Source: a virus
Length of the DNA: 64,000 nucleotides
IMG/VR virus record: IMGVR_UViG_3300031687_000001
Span: 32,001-96,000 of that record
Strand: one strand, 5' to 3'
Positions 15,122 through 23,803 of this stretch are shown here, piece after piece (the stretch's first letter is position 1; every line of letters starts with the position of its first letter). Under the pieces are notes generated by a model. The model did not search any database and had not been told where the DNA came from. It worked only from the letters and a program-made list of their open reading frames with translations. Made by a program: the position numbers and the translations under genes.

Positions 15122-17131
15122 TTACTTACTTTTCAATACATCAATTTCTGCTTTCAATTCCTTGACTGCTTCAATTAATAGTGCTACGATATTTCCGTAA
15201 GCCACCGAGTAATGATCATCTTCTGATCCAGGTGTGCTATTTGGTCCACCAGTAACTGCTTCAGGTAATACTTTTAGTACTTCCTGTGCAATAACACCGA
15301 CATGTCTGTCAGTAGGATTATGTGCGTATACAGTAGGCACTTCTTCCGGTGTTGCCGGAGTAAGGTCTGTTCTATCATACGTATAACCATTTAGTTGACA
15401 TACTTTGTCCAATGCATCTGGAATTATCTCAAGATTTTCCTTAACACGTTCGTCTGAGTATGCAGTAACGTTACCTGAAGTCCAGATACTATCACCAATT
15501 GCAGAACGAGTAGTACCAGCAGACATATATGCTGCGTGATGACCTGCGATCTTGCGTCCGTTTGCGTTTGTGTTATTAGAATGAGTCCATGCTATTCCGT
15601 AGAAATTGCCTGGCGCTACACCATTATCATCTAATGTATACGCTGCGCCCATACTATAAACTTGTTGGAATTTAGTAGCTGAATATAATCCAGTTACACC
15701 GTGTCCGTAGTTTGAACCGAATGTGATATTGTTAGATACATTACCACCACTCGTTGGCAAATATGCGTGAGTATGTGAGTTCTTAGTTGATCCTTGATTC
15801 AAGATATAAGGAGCCAATGAAGCTGGCGTCATATATCTCAAATAAGAATCATTTGATGCATATATACGAGCTGGTGCTGATGTACTTGCGCCCGATGCAG
15901 TGTTAATCCAACCGAAGTTAGCGTAACCATTGGCATCTGTGCGAACGACTTTGTTGGCAGCATTGTTAGTTGTACCATTCAATGTCAATCCATCTACTGT
16001 TCCAGCGTTCAATCCAGCAGTACCGTTACTATCAACTGTTTTAAGAGATGCTAATAATTGTGCCGAAGTTTGATCTGCTGTTGCACCTGACTCAATGCCG
16101 TTTAACTTAGTATGATCTGTTGATGTAAAGTTGATCTGTGAAAGACCACCATCGCCTACTGAATAAGTAGTGTTAGGCCAAGACCTGTCATAAGCCGCTT
16201 TAACTGCTGCTGATGATGCAGATACAGATGTGCTTGTTGATGTTACGCTATTTGAAATTGCGCGATGAGTATTGGTGTCCTGTGCATCTGCATAAACCTT
16301 TGCTGATGCCAATGCTGCGTTTGCTTTAGTAGTCGCATCTGCTGCTGCCGTAGAAGCCGCTGATGATGTAACACTTGCGATTGCTGAACTTAGTTCTGAA
16401 TCAGTTGCCATTGCATCTTGGATTTCTTTAAGCGTATTAAATGCTGCGCCTGCGCCATTAGTTACGTCTGCAACTGCACCTGCTCTTGCTGCGTTTGCTT
16501 TACTAGTTGCGTCTGCTGCTGCTGCTGAGATTGCTTGTGACTTTGCATTATTTGCTTTAGTAGTTGCATCAGAACTTGCTGCTGATTCTGCATCTGCTTC
16601 TGCTTGATCTGCATATGCCTTTGCTGATACCAATGCTGCGTTCGCTTTGGTAGTCGCATCACTTGCTGCTGCTGAGATTGCTTGTGACTTTGCATTATTT
16701 GCTTTAGTAGTTGCATCAGAACTTGCTGCTGAGATTGCTTGTGACTTTGCATTATTTGCTTTAGTAGTTGCATCAGAACTTGCTGCTGATTCTGCATCTG
16801 CTTCTGCTTGATCTGCATATGCCTTTGCTGATACCAATGCTGCGTTCGCTTTACTAGTTGCATCACTTGCTGCTGCTGCTTTTACTTCTGCTGGCGAATC
16901 AACACCTGAGCCATTATCGGTTGTCAACATGGTAGTTGCTAAGATAGAAATGTTACGTTCCATATCTGCTGCTCTACGAAGCGATGACTTGGAACCAGAC
17001 ATAGAAATCTCGTTATCACCTAATGTTCCAGTTGATTCAACTAAATCACCTGTTGGACTGTACTTATATTTTTTGTTTTTGTCTAATGACACACTTGTCA
17101 TTACACCATTCTTTTTAATTTTTCTTGACAT
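15122..17131 (-). CDS. Receptor-binding tail fibre paralogue (MSRKIKK family, SPT type) with S74 chaperone, 669 aa
   Basis: Shared N-terminus, Ala-rich SDATTKAN repeats, HTH motif, AYSDERVK...GVIAQEV...VAYGN. Confidence 0.85.
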   Translation of the reverse strand: MSRKIKKNGVMTSVSLDKNKKYKYSPTGDLVESTGTLGDNEISMSGSKSSLRRAADMERNISILATTMLTTDNGSGVDSPAEVKAAAASDATSKANAALVSAKAYADQAEADAESAASSDATTKANNAKSQAISAASSDATTKANNAKSQAISAAASDATTKANAALVSAKAYADQAEADAESAASSDATTKANNAKSQAISAAAADATSKANAARAGAVADVTNGAGAAFNTLKEIQDAMATDSELSSAIASVTSSAASTAAADATTKANAALASAKVYADAQDTNTHRAISNSVTSTSTSVSASSAAVKAAYDRSWPNTTYSVGDGGLSQINFTSTDHTKLNGIESGATADQTSAQLLASLKTVDSNGTAGLNAGTVDGLTLNGTTNNAANKVVRTDANGYANFGWINTASGASTSAPARIYASNDSYLRYMTPASLAPYILNQGSTKNSHTHAYLPTSGGNVSNNITFGSNYGHGVTGLYSATKFQQVYSMGAAYTLDDNGVAPGNFYGIAWTHSNNTNANGRKIAGHHAAYMSAGTTRSAIGDSIWTSGNVTAYSDERVKENLEIIPDALDKVCQLNGYTYDRTDLTPATPEEVPTVYAHNPTDRHVGVIAQEVLKVLPEAVTGGPNSTPGSEDDHYSVAYGNIVALLIEAVKELKAEIDVLKSK

Positions 17132-17151
17132 TATTTTATCTCCTTAAAGAT

Positions 17152-17262
17152 ATTGATTGATACGAAGAATATACTCTGTATATTCCAGTGTTTATGATAA
17201 TCATAACTTTTATGATAATCATAAACTAAGCAGGGAGTTAAACTCCCTACGTTTGATCAATT
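17152..17262 (-). ncRNA. Structured intercistronic cis-element, copy 1
   Basis: Three hairpins with conserved linkers, homologous to 21452-21545 with compensatory changes. Confidence 0.6.
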
Positions 17263-17266
17263 TATA

Positions 17267-19117
17267 CTACTTTTTTAATTTAGCAATTTCCGCTGCTTGA
17301 CTTTCTACCATTGATTTTAGTTCTTTTATAGACTCAATCAATAACGGAACCATACGCTCATATTGTACAGTTTTATAATCTGTACCATTGTCGCTATTAA
17401 TCGGTGCTGATTTAACAACCTCTGGCATTACTGCTTCAACTTCTTGTGCTGATACACCAACTTGCTGAACATCAGTATCATACCCAAGTTCGCCTGCTAC
17501 ATCATTACCAGTGTAATGATAGCCATTTAGTTGCGATACCTTGTCTAATGCATTCTCGATCTTACCACTAAAGTTCTTTAGACGCTCATCTGAGTAGTAT
17601 GCTGTTACTTCACCAGTTGCAGATATATTGGCAGCTCTAAAATTTTCATAGCCAGTGCCTGGATTGTTTCGTATTGTTATCGTACCGTCCGTCTCCATAG
17701 AGATATTTGATGCGACAACGCCGCCCCAATGCATACCGATTCTAGGAGCTGACATTCCAACACCCGATCCATATCCACCTTCTCTAACCTCAATTCCCGC
17801 GTCACCGTATCCAGTAGATGTTTGTGATGCTGATGCAAACTCATGGTTTCCTAAATGATTACCACCTGCTCGCAAACTTAAATGACCCGATGCAGTATCA
17901 GTAGCATCTGATCGTAGGAATTGCGAACCTTGAACTCCATCTAATAAATCAGCATCTAAGCCAGAGCCAGAACCGTCGTTTTGGTTATCCCAAATCTTGC
18001 GCCATGAACCCCAAGTACCGCTATTCATGCCACGTGACGATAATTCGCCTGTTCTAAAGTTACTGAATATCTGAGATACCCATGATGTGCTATGAGCTGC
18101 TACAAACATACCGCCATCTGAGAAACCTGCTGCGCTTGCAGCGTTGCAATAACCAATTGTGTTTGCGGTGGCGGAGTCAATTGCTAAAGCATTGCCAGTG
18201 TTGCGAGATGTAAACGTAGACCCCGCAAAGTTATAAGTCGTGTTAGGCCATGATCTATCATATGCTGCTTTAACTGCCGCTGATGATGCAGATATAGACG
18301 TGCTAGTTGATGTTACACTATTTGAAATACCACGCCATGTATTAGTATCTGTGTCATTTGCATCTGCATAAACCTTTGCTGCTGCCAATGCTGCGTTTGC
18401 TTTAGTAGTTGCATCTGCTGATGCTGTCGCCGCTGCTGATGATGTAACACTTGAGATCGCTGAACTTAGTTCCGAATCGGTTGCCATTGCATTTTGGATT
18501 TCAACTAAAGTATCAAATGCCGCCCCTGCGCCATTAGTTACTGCTGCAATTGCTGCTGTCTTTGCTGCGTTTGCTTTTGTAGTCGCATCACTTGCTGCTG
18601 CTGAAATTGCTTGTGACTTTGCATTATTTGCTTTGGTAGTCGCATCACTTGCTGCTGATGAAATTGCTTGTGACTTTGCATTATTTGCTTTGGTAGTCGC
18701 ATCACTTGCTGCTGATGAAATTGCTTGTGATTTTGCATTATTTGCTTTACTAGTTGCATCTGAACTTGCTGCTGATTCTGCATCTGCTTCTGCTTGATCT
18801 GCATATGCTTTTGCTGATACTAATGCTGCGTTTGCTTTAGTAGTTGCATCACTTGCTGCTGCTGCTTTTACTTCTGCTGGCGAATCAACACCTGCGCCGT
18901 TATCGGTTGTCAACATGGTAGTTGCTAATATGGAAATATTACGTTCCATATCTGCTGCTCTACGAAGCGATGACTTGGAACCAGACATAGAAATCTCGTT
19001 ATCGCCTAATGTTCCAGTTGATTCAACTAAATCACCTGTTGCATCATACTTATATTTTTTGTTTTTGTCTAATGACACACTTGTCATTACACCATTCTTT
19101 TTAATTTTTCTTGACAT
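17267..19117 (-). CDS. Receptor-binding tail fibre paralogue (MSRKIKK family, DAT type) with S74 chaperone, 616 aa
   Basis: Shared N-terminus, distinct tip, YYSDERLK...GVSAQEVE. Confidence 0.85.
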   Translation of the reverse strand: MSRKIKKNGVMTSVSLDKNKKYKYDATGDLVESTGTLGDNEISMSGSKSSLRRAADMERNISILATTMLTTDNGAGVDSPAEVKAAAASDATTKANAALVSAKAYADQAEADAESAASSDATSKANNAKSQAISSAASDATTKANNAKSQAISSAASDATTKANNAKSQAISAAASDATTKANAAKTAAIAAVTNGAGAAFDTLVEIQNAMATDSELSSAISSVTSSAAATASADATTKANAALAAAKVYADANDTDTNTWRGISNSVTSTSTSISASSAAVKAAYDRSWPNTTYNFAGSTFTSRNTGNALAIDSATANTIGYCNAASAAGFSDGGMFVAAHSTSWVSQIFSNFRTGELSSRGMNSGTWGSWRKIWDNQNDGSGSGLDADLLDGVQGSQFLRSDATDTASGHLSLRAGGNHLGNHEFASASQTSTGYGDAGIEVREGGYGSGVGMSAPRIGMHWGGVVASNISMETDGTITIRNNPGTGYENFRAANISATGEVTAYYSDERLKNFSGKIENALDKVSQLNGYHYTGNDVAGELGYDTDVQQVGVSAQEVEAVMPEVVKSAPINSDNGTDYKTVQYERMVPLLIESIKELKSMVESQAAEIAKLKK

Positions 19118-19144
19118 GGTTTGGAATTCCTTTATTTAACATCT

Positions 19145-19182
19145 CGTCAGATCTTACTAACGCAGTGCTTATTGGTATTTAT
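19145..19182 (-). promoter_or_regulatory. Late promoter followed by the UAAGAU hexaloop leader hairpin
   Basis: ATAAATA (19176-82), then CGTTAG-TAAGAT-CTGACG (19145-62). Confidence 0.65.
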
Positions 19183-19231
19183 GCCATATTTATGAAAGTT
19201 AACAACCTATATTCATAAATAAAATCCAAAT

Positions 19232-19256
19232 AAAAACGCCCACTGTGGGCGTTTTT
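19232..19256 (-). terminator. Intrinsic terminator
   Basis: AAAAACGCCCAC-T-GTGGGCGTTTTT inverted repeat. Confidence 0.85.
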
Positions 19257-19284
19257 CTTCTTATAGTACTAAGTACTTTATAGA

Positions 19285-21402
19285 CTAGCGATTTGCTTTT
19301 AACTCATCAATTTGAACTTGTTGTTCTTTGATTGCTTCAATAAGCAATGCAACTAGATTACCGTATGCTACAGAGTAATGATCATCTTCTGATCCTTCAT
19401 TGCTGTTAGGACCGCCAGAAACTGCTTCTGGTAGTACAGCAAGAACTTCTTGTGCTATAACGCCAACATATCTATTTTTAGGATTATGAGCGTAAATAGT
19501 ACCTTCTTCCTCTGGAGTTGCTGGTTGCTTATCAGTTCTGTCGTATGTGTAACCATTTAACTGCTTGACTTTATCAATAGCGTTAGGTATTACTTCTAGG
19601 TTGTCTTTAACCCTTGCATCTGAATATGCAATCACATCGCCAGAAGTCCAAACATTAGAACCCATAGCTGATGTTGGGCCACCATTCTGACACCAAACCA
19701 TCTGATGTCCACTAGCCAACGCACCACCAGTAGCATTGTTAGTATGCTTATAGGCTAGACCATAAAGGTTTCCGAAGTTAACTCCAGTTGCGCTAGATTT
19801 ATAAGCAGTTCCCATAGACCAGATGTGGGTAGGGTTGGTTGAGTCATAATGTCCGTAAACACCTCTGTCACGATAAGCAGTTTCGTTTACTAAGTAACCA
19901 CGTTGGTAGATAGTGTTGTTCTGATAGTCAGTTGCGTCACTACGCATATAACTAGCACCATTGACACCGTCTAATAAGTTTGCATCGGCAGCCTTGGCAG
20001 TTAAACCTAAGTAGCTATGAGTGTGTCCATCAACACTAACGCCAACAGAATCACAGTACGACTTAAATGCACCGCTAGTCATAAACCTTGTGTAGTTATC
20101 AGAAGTGGAGTTGTTTCTGAACGCAATATCCGCAGTTGTTGCTGGTGCAGTACTTTGCTCCGCATAGTTTGATCGAAATAGTCTGGCAGTTATATCCGCT
20201 GCGCTATCTCGCTCTGCTACTGTATTAGCGGTTGCTGCTGAAGTAAGAGCATGACCATCTAATCTACCAGCGTTAATACCACCAGAGCCGTCAACATCTA
20301 CTGTCTTAATAGACGCTAATAGTTGAGCTGCTGATTGATCTGCTGTTGCTCCTGATTCAATGCCGTTTAACTTGCTGTGATCAGCCGAAGTAAAGTTAAT
20401 CTGTGAAAGACCACCATCACCTACAGAATAGGTTGTGTTAGGCCAAGATCTATCGTAAGCAGCCTTTACTGCTGCTGATGATGCTGATACAGATGTGCTA
20501 GTCGATGACGTGCTATTTGAAATACCGCGCCATGTATTAGTATTGGCATCATTTGCGTCTGCATAAACTTTTGCTGCTGCTAATGCTGCGTTTGCTTTAG
20601 TAGTCGCGTCTGCTGATGCAGTTGCTGCTGCTGACGAAGTAACACTTGAGATTGCTGAACTTAGTTCTGAATCAGTTGCCATTGCATTTTGGATTTCAAC
20701 TAAAGTATCAAATGCTGCGCCTGCGCCATTAGTTACTGCTGCAATTGCTGCTGCTTGTGCTGCATTTGCTTTGGTAGTCGCATCACTTGCTGCTGCTGAG
20801 ATCGCCTGTGATTTTGCATTATTTGCTTTAGTAGTCGCATCTGATGCTGCTGCTGATTCTGCATCTGCTTCTGCTTGATCTGCATATGACTTTGCTGATG
20901 CCAATGCTGCGTTTGCTTTTGTAGTCGCATCACTTGCTGCTGCTGAGATCGCCTGTGACTTTGCATTGTTTGCTTTAGTAGTCGCATCTGAACTTGCTGC
21001 TGATTCTGCATCTGCTTCTGCTTGATCTGCATATGCTTTTGCTGATACCAATGCTGCGTTTGCTTTAGTAGTCGCATCACTTGCTGCTGCCGAGATTGCT
21101 TGTGACTTTGCATTGTTTGCTTTAGTCGTTGCATCTGTTGCTGCTGCTGCTTTTACTTCTGCTGGCGAATCTATACCTGCGCCATTATCGGTTGTCAACA
21201 TGGTAGTTGCTAAGATAGAAATGTTACGTTCCATATCTGCTGCTCTACGAAGCGATGACTTAGAACCAGATATAGAAATCTCGTTATCACCTAATTCACC
21301 AGTTGATTCAACTAAATCACCTGTTGGGCTGTACTTATATTTTTTGTTTTTGTCTAATGACACACTTGTCATTACACCATTCTTTTTAATTTTTCTTGAC
21401 AT
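19285..21402 (-). CDS. Receptor-binding tail fibre paralogue (MSRKIKK family, SPT type) with S74 chaperone, 705 aa
   Basis: Shared N-terminus, HTH motif, chaperone very similar to that of 15122..17131. Confidence 0.85.
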   Translation of the reverse strand: MSRKIKKNGVMTSVSLDKNKKYKYSPTGDLVESTGELGDNEISISGSKSSLRRAADMERNISILATTMLTTDNGAGIDSPAEVKAAAATDATTKANNAKSQAISAAASDATTKANAALVSAKAYADQAEADAESAASSDATTKANNAKSQAISAAASDATTKANAALASAKSYADQAEADAESAAASDATTKANNAKSQAISAAASDATTKANAAQAAAIAAVTNGAGAAFDTLVEIQNAMATDSELSSAISSVTSSAAATASADATTKANAALAAAKVYADANDANTNTWRGISNSTSSTSTSVSASSAAVKAAYDRSWPNTTYSVGDGGLSQINFTSADHSKLNGIESGATADQSAAQLLASIKTVDVDGSGGINAGRLDGHALTSAATANTVAERDSAADITARLFRSNYAEQSTAPATTADIAFRNNSTSDNYTRFMTSGAFKSYCDSVGVSVDGHTHSYLGLTAKAADANLLDGVNGASYMRSDATDYQNNTIYQRGYLVNETAYRDRGVYGHYDSTNPTHIWSMGTAYKSSATGVNFGNLYGLAYKHTNNATGGALASGHQMVWCQNGGPTSAMGSNVWTSGDVIAYSDARVKDNLEVIPNAIDKVKQLNGYTYDRTDKQPATPEEEGTIYAHNPKNRYVGVIAQEVLAVLPEAVSGGPNSNEGSEDDHYSVAYGNLVALLIEAIKEQQVQIDELKANR

Positions 21403-21423
21403 TTTTACATCTCCTAAATGAAA

Positions 21424-21450
21424 ATACCGTCAATGAATCATTGACGGTAT
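21424..21450 (-). terminator. Terminator/attenuator-like hairpin in the leader of a fibre gene
   Basis: Perfect 13-bp inverted repeat ATACCGTCAATGA-N-TCATTGACGGTAT followed by a T-rich tract on the minus strand, just before the RBS. Confidence 0.55.
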
Positions 21451-21451
21451 C

Positions 21452-21545
21452 GATTGATACGAAGGATATAACTCAGTATATCCCAGTGTTTATGATTATC
21501 ATAAACTAAGTAGAGAGTTATGACAACTATCTACGTTTGATCAGT
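21452..21545 (-). ncRNA. Structured intercistronic cis-element, copy 2
   Basis: Homologous to 17152-17262. Confidence 0.6.
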
Positions 21546-21550
21546 CTATA

Positions 21551-23803
21551 TTATGAACTTAATCCTGTTACTTCAATTTCGTCGTCTTCTGCAATAATAC
21601 CTTGTGAGATAGTTACAGTTGTGCCTGATACTGAATACTCGCTTGCACGTAGAAACAATCTGTTAACTAAAACAACATAATGCTTCGCACTTGACAATTC
21701 ACTAAACGTAAAGTTAGTTGTCGAAGTCGTGTTATTAGTTTCTTGTGATGCTGTAACATTCTGAACTGCACTGTGGAAGTGACTAAGTTGTGCAATTGCG
21801 CCTGCTTGTGCTGCGTTTGCTTTAGTAGTTGCATCACTCGCTGCTGCTGATTCTGCATCTGCTTCTGCTTGATCTGCATATGCTTTTGCTGATACTAATG
21901 CTGCGTTTGCTTTAGTAGTTGCATCACTCGCTGCTGCTGATTCTGCATCTGCTTCTGCTTGATCTGCATATGCTTTTGCTGATACTAATGCTGCGTTTGC
22001 TTTAGTAGTTGCATCTGTTGCTGCTGCTGATTGTGCTGCGTTAGCCTTTGAAGTAGCGTCTGCTGATGCTGTAGAAGCCGCTGATGATGTAACACTTGCG
22101 ATCGCTGAACTTAGTTCTGAATCAGTTGCCATTGCATCTTGGATTTCTTTAAGCGTATTAAATGCCGCCCCTGCGCCATTAGTTACGTCTGCAACTGCAC
22201 CTGCTCTTGCTGCGTTTGCTTTACTAGTTGCGTCTGCTGCTGCTGCTGATTGGGCTGCGTTAGCTTTAGTAGTTGCATCTGCTGATGCTGTTGCTGCACG
22301 AGTAGCGTCTTTAGATTCTGCTGCATTAATTGCTGCTAGTTCTGCTGCGTCTGCATATGAGTTTGCTGCTGATGCACGTACTACGTCTTTTGCTTCTGCT
22401 GATGCAATTGCTGCTAGTTCTGCTGCGTCTGCTTTAGTAGTCGCGTCTGCTGATGCTGTTGCTGCACGAGTAGCGTCTTTAGATTCTGCTGCATTAATTG
22501 CTGCTAGTTCTGCTGCGTCTGCTTTAGTAGTCGCGTCTGCTGATGCTGTTGCTGCTGCTGATGAAGTAACACTTGAGATTGCTGAACTTAGTTCTGCGTC
22601 GGTTGCCATTGCATTCTGAATTTCAACTAGAGTATCAAATGCTGCGCCTGCGCCATTAGTTACTGCTGCAATTGCTGCTGCTTGTGCTGCATTTGCTTTG
22701 GTAGTCGCATCACTTGCTGCTGTTGCTTCTGCTGTATCTGCGTATGATTTTGCTGATACTAATGCTGCGTCTGCTTTAGTAGTTGCATCTGTTGCTGCTG
22801 CTGATTGTGCTGCGTCTGCTTTAGTTGTTGCATCTGTTGCTGCTGCTGATTGTGCTGCGTCTGCTTTAGTTGTTGCATCTGTTGCTGCTGCTGATTGTGC
22901 TGCATCTGCTTTAGTAGTTGCATCTGTTGCTGCTGCTGATACTGCGTCTGCTTCTGCTGTGTCTACATATGATTCTTGTGCGTAACCAGTGAAGTCAACA
23001 TTGTTAGTAATTGCTGTATCTGTATAAGATGCTGCTGCTGCTATTGCTGCTGCTTCTGCTGCGTCTGCTTTAATTGTTGCGCCGTCTGCCGCTACTGAGA
23101 TGCTATTGGTGATTGTAGCAGCGAAGTTAGCATCATCGCCAAGTGCGGTAGCCAATTCGTTTAGTGTATCTAATGCGCCAGGTGCGCCGTTAATAAGACC
23201 ATTGATTGCTGCGTCTACATAAGTTTTGTTGGTTGCATGTCCATCTTCAGTTGGTGCTGCTAAGTTGATGATTTGGTTATTATCCATATCAACTTTATCG
23301 CCAAACTTAACTGCTGTTCCGTCTGCATCTGTAATTTTCTTACCAGAAGCCATTTGTAGAGTTGCTGCAACGTTAACAGTTGATGCAGATGCTAGTGTCA
23401 ATACACCAGTTCCTGTTACCTGTGTAGTCAACGATTGGTTAACATCAGCCTGAACAACGATCGTACCTGAATTAGATTCGATAACTTTCTGTCCATCAAT
23501 ATAAAGTGAACCTTCTGATAGGTAAAGGTCACGCCATTTCATTGTTGGTGAACCTAAGTCATAACCAGTAGTTCCGTCTGAATCTATTGAAGGTATGATA
23601 TGAGCAGACATAGTTAGATCACCTGTCATGGTGTCGCCTGATTTGCTTACTGATTGTGCTACTGCGCCGCCTGATGCTGATGCAATTGCTGATGCTAAGT
23701 CTTGTCCGTCTAATAAAACCGTATCAACTGTTAAATTACCAGTGATTACTGAATCTGCATTAGTTTCAAAACCTGCATCTATTAAAAATCTTTTTTGTGC
23801 CAT
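21551..23803 (-). CDS. Fibre/structural protein with Ala-rich repeats and no S74 chaperone, 750 aa
   Basis: GAPGALDTLNELATALGDDANFA fibre motif; AAATDATTKAD repeats shared with the neighbouring fibres. Confidence 0.75.
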   Translation of the reverse strand: MAQKRFLIDAGFETNADSVITGNLTVDTVLLDGQDLASAIASASGGAVAQSVSKSGDTMTGDLTMSAHIIPSIDSDGTTGYDLGSPTMKWRDLYLSEGSLYIDGQKVIESNSGTIVVQADVNQSLTTQVTGTGVLTLASASTVNVAATLQMASGKKITDADGTAVKFGDKVDMDNNQIINLAAPTEDGHATNKTYVDAAINGLINGAPGALDTLNELATALGDDANFAATITNSISVAADGATIKADAAEAAAIAAAASYTDTAITNNVDFTGYAQESYVDTAEADAVSAAATDATTKADAAQSAAATDATTKADAAQSAAATDATTKADAAQSAAATDATTKADAALVSAKSYADTAEATAASDATTKANAAQAAAIAAVTNGAGAAFDTLVEIQNAMATDAELSSAISSVTSSAAATASADATTKADAAELAAINAAESKDATRAATASADATTKADAAELAAIASAEAKDVVRASAANSYADAAELAAINAAESKDATRAATASADATTKANAAQSAAAADATSKANAARAGAVADVTNGAGAAFNTLKEIQDAMATDSELSSAIASVTSSAASTASADATSKANAAQSAAATDATTKANAALVSAKAYADQAEADAESAAASDATTKANAALVSAKAYADQAEADAESAAASDATTKANAAQAGAIAQLSHFHSAVQNVTASQETNNTTSTTNFTFSELSSAKHYVVLVNRLFLRASEYSVSGTTVTISQGIIAEDDEIEVTGLSS

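Follow-up and report, generated by a model that had tools for sequence, protein, structure and literature searches.

The Fibre Gene Region and Its Two Repeats

The element considered here is a repeat of about 95 bases that occurs twice among the tail-fibre genes of an uncultured virus (IMG/VR record IMGVR_UViG_3300031687_000001). The window, that is, the whole stretch of 64,000 nucleotides (nt) that was analysed, is part of an IMG/VR contig of 148,882 bp with a CheckV completeness of 40%, and the only copies found in the contig are these two. An earlier note, made from the letters alone, had pointed to two structured copies on the messenger RNA strand (here the minus strand), and both were located by sequence and by a covariance model. 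They represent two copies of an uncatalogued four-stem RNA family and are direct repeats. All genes of the region lie on the minus strand, where the order is gene A, copy 2, a hairpin with a T tract, fibre B, a strong terminator, a promoter region, fibre C, copy 1, fibre D, a terminator and then fibre E.

21551..23803, minus strand: gene A, fibre-like anchor/stalk of 750 amino acids (aa) with the C-terminus ...DDEIEVTGLSS; PHROG tail-fibre matches
21448..21548, minus strand: element copy 2, in the ancestral position behind the anchor-type gene A; covariance-model match of 78.7 bits (E 3e-21)
21423..21451, minus strand: terminator-like hairpin of 13 bp, T-rich tail to ~21413, inserted between copy 2 and the fibre B ribosome-binding site
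19285..21402, minus strand: fibre B, 705 aa, downstream of copy 2; AGGAG at 21415-21411, ATG at 21402; Peptidase_S74
17267..19117, minus strand: fibre C, 616 aa, promoter-proximal, N-terminal module of the B/D type; no element in front
17151..17264, minus strand: element copy 1, covariance-model match of 79.2 bits (E 2e-21), after fibre C
15122..17131, minus strand: fibre D, 669 aa, downstream of copy 1; AAGGAG at 17145-17140, ATG at 17131

Gene A is repeat-rich and fibre-like, with a distinct C-terminus. Fibres B, C and D also have PHROG tail-fibre matches, are 92-96% identical over their first 300 nt (repeat family D9) and end in a Peptidase_S74 chaperone domain. The stop codons of gene A and of fibre C each end 5 nt ahead of P1, the closing stem of the copy that follows. 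The proposal that these genes form two two-gene operons was borne out: late-promoter-like motifs (ATAAATAC) lie ahead of A and C and not of B and D, and each of the latter two is followed by a terminator. This motif, which we take to match the T4-type late promoter consensus, also precedes other structural genes. Its presence ahead of A and C but not of B and D places the element inside dicistronic messages. A late promoter before copy 1, for which TATAAATT is a near-match, was discarded, as the match is conserved neither in copy 2 nor in relatives. Copy 1 itself owes its existence solely to the duplication of a fibre 5' end, with which the element was carried along; fibre C has the N-terminal module at 96% nt identity and its own late-promoter-like motif, without the element.

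A few bases downstream of ATAAATAC, a second leader element, the hairpin GUUAGUAAGAUCU(A/G)(A/G)C, is found at 23850-23835, 19161-19146 and 26354-26339 (minus strand), ahead of the three promoter-proximal fibre genes (A, C and the one at 26312-24417), with four matches counted against 0.06 expected. This hairpin thus belongs to promoter-proximal fibre genes, and the four-stem element to internal cistrons. The fibre genes also contain in-frame repeats of 45, 57 and 90 nt, encoding Ala/Thr-rich stalk segments, at 21700-23100 (gene A), 16280-16940, 18340-18930 and 20540-21210. Such repeats are common to gene A and to fibres B, C and D and, judging from the sequences, suggest frequent recombination or gene conversion among fibre genes.

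A Four-Stem RNA Maintained by Compensatory Change

Each copy folds as the closing stem P1 and three hairpins (P2 to P4), separated by short linkers or junction strands (J).

21545-21540 with 21458-21453, minus strand: copy 2 P1, with one C-A mismatch
21539-21535, minus strand: copy 2 J1/2, CAAAC
21534-21525 with 21519-21510, minus strand: copy 2 P2
21506-21488, minus strand: copy 2 P3
21487-21485, minus strand: copy 2 J3/4, ACT
21484-21463, minus strand: copy 2 P4
21462-21459, minus strand: copy 2 J4/1, TCGT
17261-17256 with 17161-17156, minus strand: copy 1 P1
17255-17251, minus strand: copy 1 J1/2
17250-17241 with 17239-17230, minus strand: copy 1 P2
17226-17190, minus strand: copy 1 P3, its palindrome tandemly duplicated to give a longer stem
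17189-17187, minus strand: copy 1 J3/4
17186-17166, minus strand: copy 1 P4
17165-17162, minus strand: copy 1 J4/1, TCGT

The linkers TGATCAAAC, TTA, ACT and TCGTATCAATC are the same in both copies, as had been described, and in the alignment of the copies every substitution falls in stems or loops. The accompanying claim of compensatory stem changes stood in part: two are true ones (G-C to A-U in P2 and A-U to G-C in P4), to which one U-G to U-A change can be added, but the evidence was thinner than claimed, copy 2 presenting two mismatches (U-C in P2 and C-A in P1). Two copies alone thus make a thin case for compensation. Both folds are far more stable than shuffled sequences (z = -7.0 for copy 1 and z = -4.6 for copy 2); the antisense strand is also stable in this comparison (z about -5.9), so that folding energy alone does not decide the strand.

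A much larger body of evidence was derived from relatives, collected from IMG/VR by their shared fibre N-terminus (22 loci, later 80/103 loci). The same four-stem architecture, built from differing stem sequences, was present in every upstream region of a relative that was inspected, and a covariance model made from the relatives placed the element immediately ahead of the fibre start at almost every locus. In total, the fibre-gene relatives that share this architecture come from about 100 IMG/VR contigs. In a plain MAFFT alignment of 14 distinct sequences, which was not fitted to the structure, 25/35 pairs were changed on both sides and 89% of the cells were paired, compared to 38-48% when the partners were slid; RNAalifold recovered the stems independently. 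The set of 42 distinct sequences led to the same conclusion, with compensatory changes in 32/33 base pairs, 92.5% of cells paired (42-50% for slid partners) and a covariation score of 0.653, against 0.09-0.17 for slid partners and reached by 0/500 shuffles. Covariation is present in all four stems, and compensatory changes in most helices, above relatedness-preserving controls, are what is generally asked of a conserved structured RNA. The earlier note had suggested a search of phage genomes with a covariance model and a test for covariation; the family collected here shows covariation that supports the fold. The note had also considered that the ends could close a four-way junction; since the arms of P1 covary, this closing stem is real. 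A complementarity of these arms to 16S rRNA was discarded as a family feature, because they vary freely in covarying pairs. Likewise, its remark that G-U pairs work only on the sense strand could be quantified: G-U/U-G pairs number 81 (among them the G-U at the base of P4, found in 29/42 sequences) and A-C/C-A pairs 10, an excess indicating that the structure belongs to the sense-strand RNA. The element is, in consequence, an autonomously folding, cis-acting RNA module with a four-way junction.

These data bear directly on a different idea, namely that the repeats act as DNA, be it as a Fur-box-like operator at P3, as a site for the recombination of fibre cassettes or as a cruciform. P3 is here a 9-1-9 palindrome (17226-17190 and 21506-21488, in tandem duplicate in copy 1), which by our own count agrees at 15/19 positions with what we take to be the E. 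coli Fur-box consensus, and the element lies at the boundary of constant and variable fibre modules. However, P3 is the least conserved part, entirely different or missing in relatives; the stems are maintained by compensatory change rather than by sequence; the G-U pairs are strand-specific; and the copies are direct repeats. A Fur box is a 19-bp palindrome conserved in sequence, whereas the resemblance is confined to this phage; a search of IMG/VR for the exact palindrome gave no match, and a Fur box or other DNA site was rejected as a family feature. The likeness is probably fortuitous, the P3 sequences of relatives being unrelated, and a function of the repeats as a DNA site is scarcely credible.

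The arms measure 6, 9-11, 0-16 and 7-9 bp and the linkers 4-5 nt. P1 is weak and A/U-rich and P2 long and G/C-rich, while P3 varies from absent (L063 and L064) to the stem of up to 16 bp formed by the duplicated palindrome in copy 1. Among the unpaired bases, those near-invariant are the CAA of J1/2 (both A at or near 100%), the U preceding P4 (100%) and the U-C-G after P4 in J4/1 (C 98%, G 100%), as well as, in the loops, an A of P2 and a G-A of P4. These near-invariant unpaired bases point to specific recognition and not to a passive hairpin. When tertiary or pseudoknot pairs were sought by mutual information, nothing but the four helices stood out, with a possible, weak C-G contact between J1/2 and the P4 loop. 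In a divergent variant (L049:2300-2500 and L126:1749-1900), scoring just 28-32 bits with the model, a small additional hairpin separates the stop codon from P1, and P4 is replaced by a far larger region.

Genomic Context in a Clade of Giant Phages

The element of the relatives separates one anchor-type gene from one distal fibre. The upstream gene is always a homologue of gene A ending in DDEIEVTG..., the sole exception being copy 1 of the window, and P1 starts 4-8 nt past its stop codon in 44/44 loci examined, with a spacer of variable sequence. Downstream, a strong ribosome-binding site follows P1 at -2 to 20 nt, or at 37 nt in copy 2 due to the inserted hairpin. In one subclade (L076, L088, L090-L104) AAGGAG begins within P1, its first three bases being part of the 3' strand. 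A single copy is present in each of four contigs of 102-205 kb. Weak minus-strand matches to the model, seen in many relatives about 1.9 kb downstream (e.g., L038:4304-4404) and considered as inverted copies, proved to be bidirectional terminator hairpins after the fibre gene; hence, there is no invertible segment.

The jumbo phages Phosso, Vibrio 2.275.O and PA5oct have capsid proteins 66-70% identical to that of this virus, and the element is kept by a clade of uncultured giant (jumbo) phages that are related to these three by their capsid. Searches outside the clade were negative: GenBank phage records gave no match by DNA or by fibre N-terminus, nor did bacterial and archaeal genomes queried with the fibre N-terminus. 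When the model was run on the isolate genomes of PA5oct, Phosso, Vibrio 2.275.O and Salmonella SD-1_S14, the only matches were weak ones on both strands of PA5oct (E at least 3e-4), judged to be generic hairpins.

A search with the C-terminus of gene A revealed two IMG/VR contigs of a sister lineage, L124 and L125, in which the same two genes occur without the element and the stop and start codons overlap as TAATG (L124:1735-1740 and L125:402-407), the classical coupled arrangement. The fibre N-terminus of both loci has an extra segment of about 30 aa. The same search detected distant phages in which a domain of the gene A type is internal to one long fibre protein.

The leader that follows P1 is conserved in relatives (L032:2479-2500 and L067:421-445) as (U/A)AAC(U/C)(U/C)..UAAGGAG, and presumably resembles the 'epsilon' translational enhancer of T7 gene 10 followed by a Shine-Dalgarno sequence. 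Such a leader would mean a strong autonomous start site. In another alternative, the element is a passive structural spacer or insulator whose compact fold would keep the long gap from loading Rho or from pairing with the fibre ribosome-binding site, with no specific partner. The ribosome-binding site is indeed predicted to be largely unpaired with the element folded, and the leader (AAACUC..AAGGAG) has the look of a strong autonomous initiation region. A spacer, however, would not be expected to hold its junction bases invariant (A, U and G each 100%, C 98%), nor to retain one four-stem architecture across fibre N-termini that are merely 44-84% identical, and we regard it as unlikely.

Attenuation, Ligand Sensing and Processing

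The earlier note had considered the element a candidate attenuator or riboswitch of no recognised class. As for the class, the statement was confirmed by Rfam: version 15 gave zero matches over the whole window at gathering thresholds; the element alone, at E <= 10, had as its best match sraA on the opposite strand, with 29 bits against a gathering score of 56; and in the relatives nothing was found at the element. Hammerhead, twister, twister-sister, hatchet, pistol and HDV-like ribozymes gave no match at E <= 10, nor at E <= 1 in eight relatives, and by inspection the junction strands CAA / U / UCG are unlike CUGANGA...GAAA. ARAGORN found no tRNA, and the arms differ from a cloverleaf of 7/4/5/5 bp with D and T loops.

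The attenuator reading started from the hairpin and T tract after copy 2. A terminator scan did find this 13-bp hairpin at 21451-21423, and copy 1, as described, runs straight into its Shine-Dalgarno sequence (AAGGAG, 17145-17140). Neither copy 1 nor any relative examined has this terminator; being unique to copy 2, it is not part of the family, so the reading as an attenuator fails. More broadly, a transcriptional role could be that of an attenuator or of a put/EAR-like RNA allowing the polymerase to read through the copy 2 terminator; it would fit with the hairpin and T tract directly following copy 2 and with the lack of a promoter-like motif proper to fibre B. Yet the terminator is an insertion at copy 2, the element leads directly to the ribosome-binding site in copy 1 and in every relative examined, and its place is between genes and not in a promoter-proximal leader, all of which make such a role highly improbable. 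For this phage alone, the hairpin at 21451-21413 may mean less read-through into fibre B.

A riboswitch, in which a small molecule or ion would control fibre translation through the stability of P1, would account for the multi-stem junction with its conserved bases, for the weak P1 and for the overlap of P1 with the Shine-Dalgarno sequence in one subclade. A riboswitch combines an aptamer with mutually exclusive pairings; here the fold is conserved but no alternative pairing is, and the candidate for one shows no co-variation. The candidate was a pairing between the leader and the 5' strand of P2, since by eye the leader resembles the 3' strand of P2, and it was rejected: the leader pairs with its own P2 strand at -4.36 kcal/mol and with those of other lineages at -4.30 kcal/mol (permutation fraction 0.41), so that the complementarity is generic and not co-evolving. 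An expression platform is not conserved among the members, most of which have an open Shine-Dalgarno sequence, and modelling predicts an open ribosome-binding site in both states. Few invariant bases are available for an aptamer, no Rfam riboswitch family matches, and the element is confined to one gene pair in one clade. A riboswitch is therefore very unlikely. Translational bypass or read-through across the element was also discarded by inspection, given that in-frame stop codons follow, consistent take-off and landing codons are lacking and the downstream Shine-Dalgarno sequence and ATG are conserved.

From the original proposal of a regulatory RNA there remains a conserved, structured, sense-strand RNA in the untranslated gap ahead of fibre genes, and ligand sensing receives no support. 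The notion that it selects the second fibre of each operon, and so switches host range, is not supported by the relatives, where one anchor-type gene is paired with one distal fibre.

An RNA processing or stability module deserves more consideration. The element would be a new self-cleaving ribozyme, or a folded target of a host or phage RNase, and the dicistronic messenger would be cut between the genes, the upstream message keeping protective 3' hairpins and the fibre message receiving a defined 5' end. Small ribozymes are common in phage intergenic regions. The approximately nine near-invariant unpaired bases of junctions and loops, together with an optional stem (P3, absent from L063 and L064), resemble small ribozymes; the position is intercistronic, and an expression platform is not needed. 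Against this stands the lack of any Rfam ribozyme match, even at E <= 10 on the element alone, as well as its strict occurrence as a single copy at one gene pair, while known ribozymes occur in many contexts. Processing also leaves unexplained both the spacing of 4-8 nt from the stop codon and the replacement by a TAATG overlap. We consider it possible, on the doubtful side. Much the same can be said of the idea that the CAA / U / UCG four-way-junction core defines a new class of catalytic or ligand-sensing RNA (ribozyme or riboswitch) controlling the receptor-binding fibres of giant phages, which might be so but would be somewhat surprising.

A Possible Translational Operator or Coupler

The reading that we tentatively prefer, while holding it far from settled, is that the element serves the distal-fibre cistron as a gene-specific translational operator or coupler. 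It would act within a dicistronic late messenger, in the untranslated gap that separates the gene for the fibre anchor from that for the distal fibre. A protein, most plausibly one encoded in the same operon, and/or the ribosome would recognise the folded junction as a whole. Given the footprint of the ribosome on messenger RNA, a ribosome terminating 4-8 nt upstream must melt the 5' strand of P1. Each ribosome that terminates on the upstream gene would thus have to open P1, and the synthesis of the distal fibre could thereby be tied to, and set relative to, that of the anchor. We favour this reading because it brings together the near-invariant junction bases, the opening of P1, the adjacency to the start site, the exclusively intercistronic use, the single gene context and the replacement by a TAATG overlap. 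Single-copy occurrence at one gene pair is the pattern of autoregulatory leaders rather than that of ribozymes or riboswitches.

Several observations weigh against an operator or coupler. In the modelling, the ribosome-binding site is not masked, and blocking the first 13 nt, as a ribosome at the stop codon would, did not unmask it: in partition-function calculations on 35 sequences, the mean unpaired probability was 0.63 vs 0.60, which leaves unsupported the variant in which the stop-codon ribosome exposes the Shine-Dalgarno sequence. The candidate alternative pairing, as mentioned, does not co-evolve. The protein partner is hypothetical, the tight spacing between stop codon and P1 could reflect genome compaction, and that of copy 1 was inherited and not independently evolved. 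Moreover, for simple coupling an elaborate four-way junction seems excessive.

A comparison with known systems shows likenesses on several sides. Autogenous translational operators include the leaders of ribosomal-protein messengers, the T4 gp32, gp43 and RegA operators and the MS2 coat-protein operator. Like these, the element is a gene-specific folded RNA beside a ribosome-binding site, with conserved unpaired bases and no terminator/antiterminator switch; unlike them, it is a four-way junction without sequence relation to any of them and would bind a hypothetical protein, and it lies between two cistrons instead of at the 5' end of the transcript. Structure-dependent translation in phages is also exemplified by the long-range pairing between MS2 coat and replicase and by the hairpins that shape the initiation region of T4 genes 25 and 38. 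There, too, translation or structure at one cistron governs the next start, as would be the case here with a terminating ribosome that must open P1, although the start site is here not detectably masked and the structure is far more elaborate. With intercistronic RNase III sites of the T7 type and the ribozymes of phage operons, the element shares its nature as a structured RNA between genes of a polycistronic message and, with small ribozymes (hammerhead, twister-sister, hatchet and pistol), a conserved core at a multi-helix junction and optional stems. It differs from twister-sister and the T7 R sites in having no internal loops, and from RNase III sites and ribozymes in general in its lack of an Rfam match and its single gene context.

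The literature searches yielded no description of the motif. Fremin et al. (2023; PMC10690425) mined IMG/VR for candidate structured RNAs and listed 8,495 of them; the main text names motifs upstream of GP20, GP32, terminase and others, tail fibres not figuring in that part of the work. The element resembles these candidates in its IMG/VR source and in being a covarying motif that lies no more than 25 nt ahead of a phage gene, and the catalogue may include it unnamed (PMC10690425).

Significance

The fold described here is well supported, and its function we infer. Its position in the fibre operon is constant throughout a whole clade of uncultured jumbo phages. The range of bacteria open to infection by a phage is decided by its tail fibres and, to our knowledge, almost nothing is known of the post-transcriptional control of their genes. 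The family deserves an Rfam entry whichever function holds, and for the tuning of dicistronic expression the element could offer a compact part of natural origin. If it turned out to be self-cleaving or to bind a ligand, it would constitute a new ribozyme or riboswitch class; if, instead, it sets the ratio of anchor to fibre or binds a fibre protein, it would represent a new regulatory principle for virion assembly.

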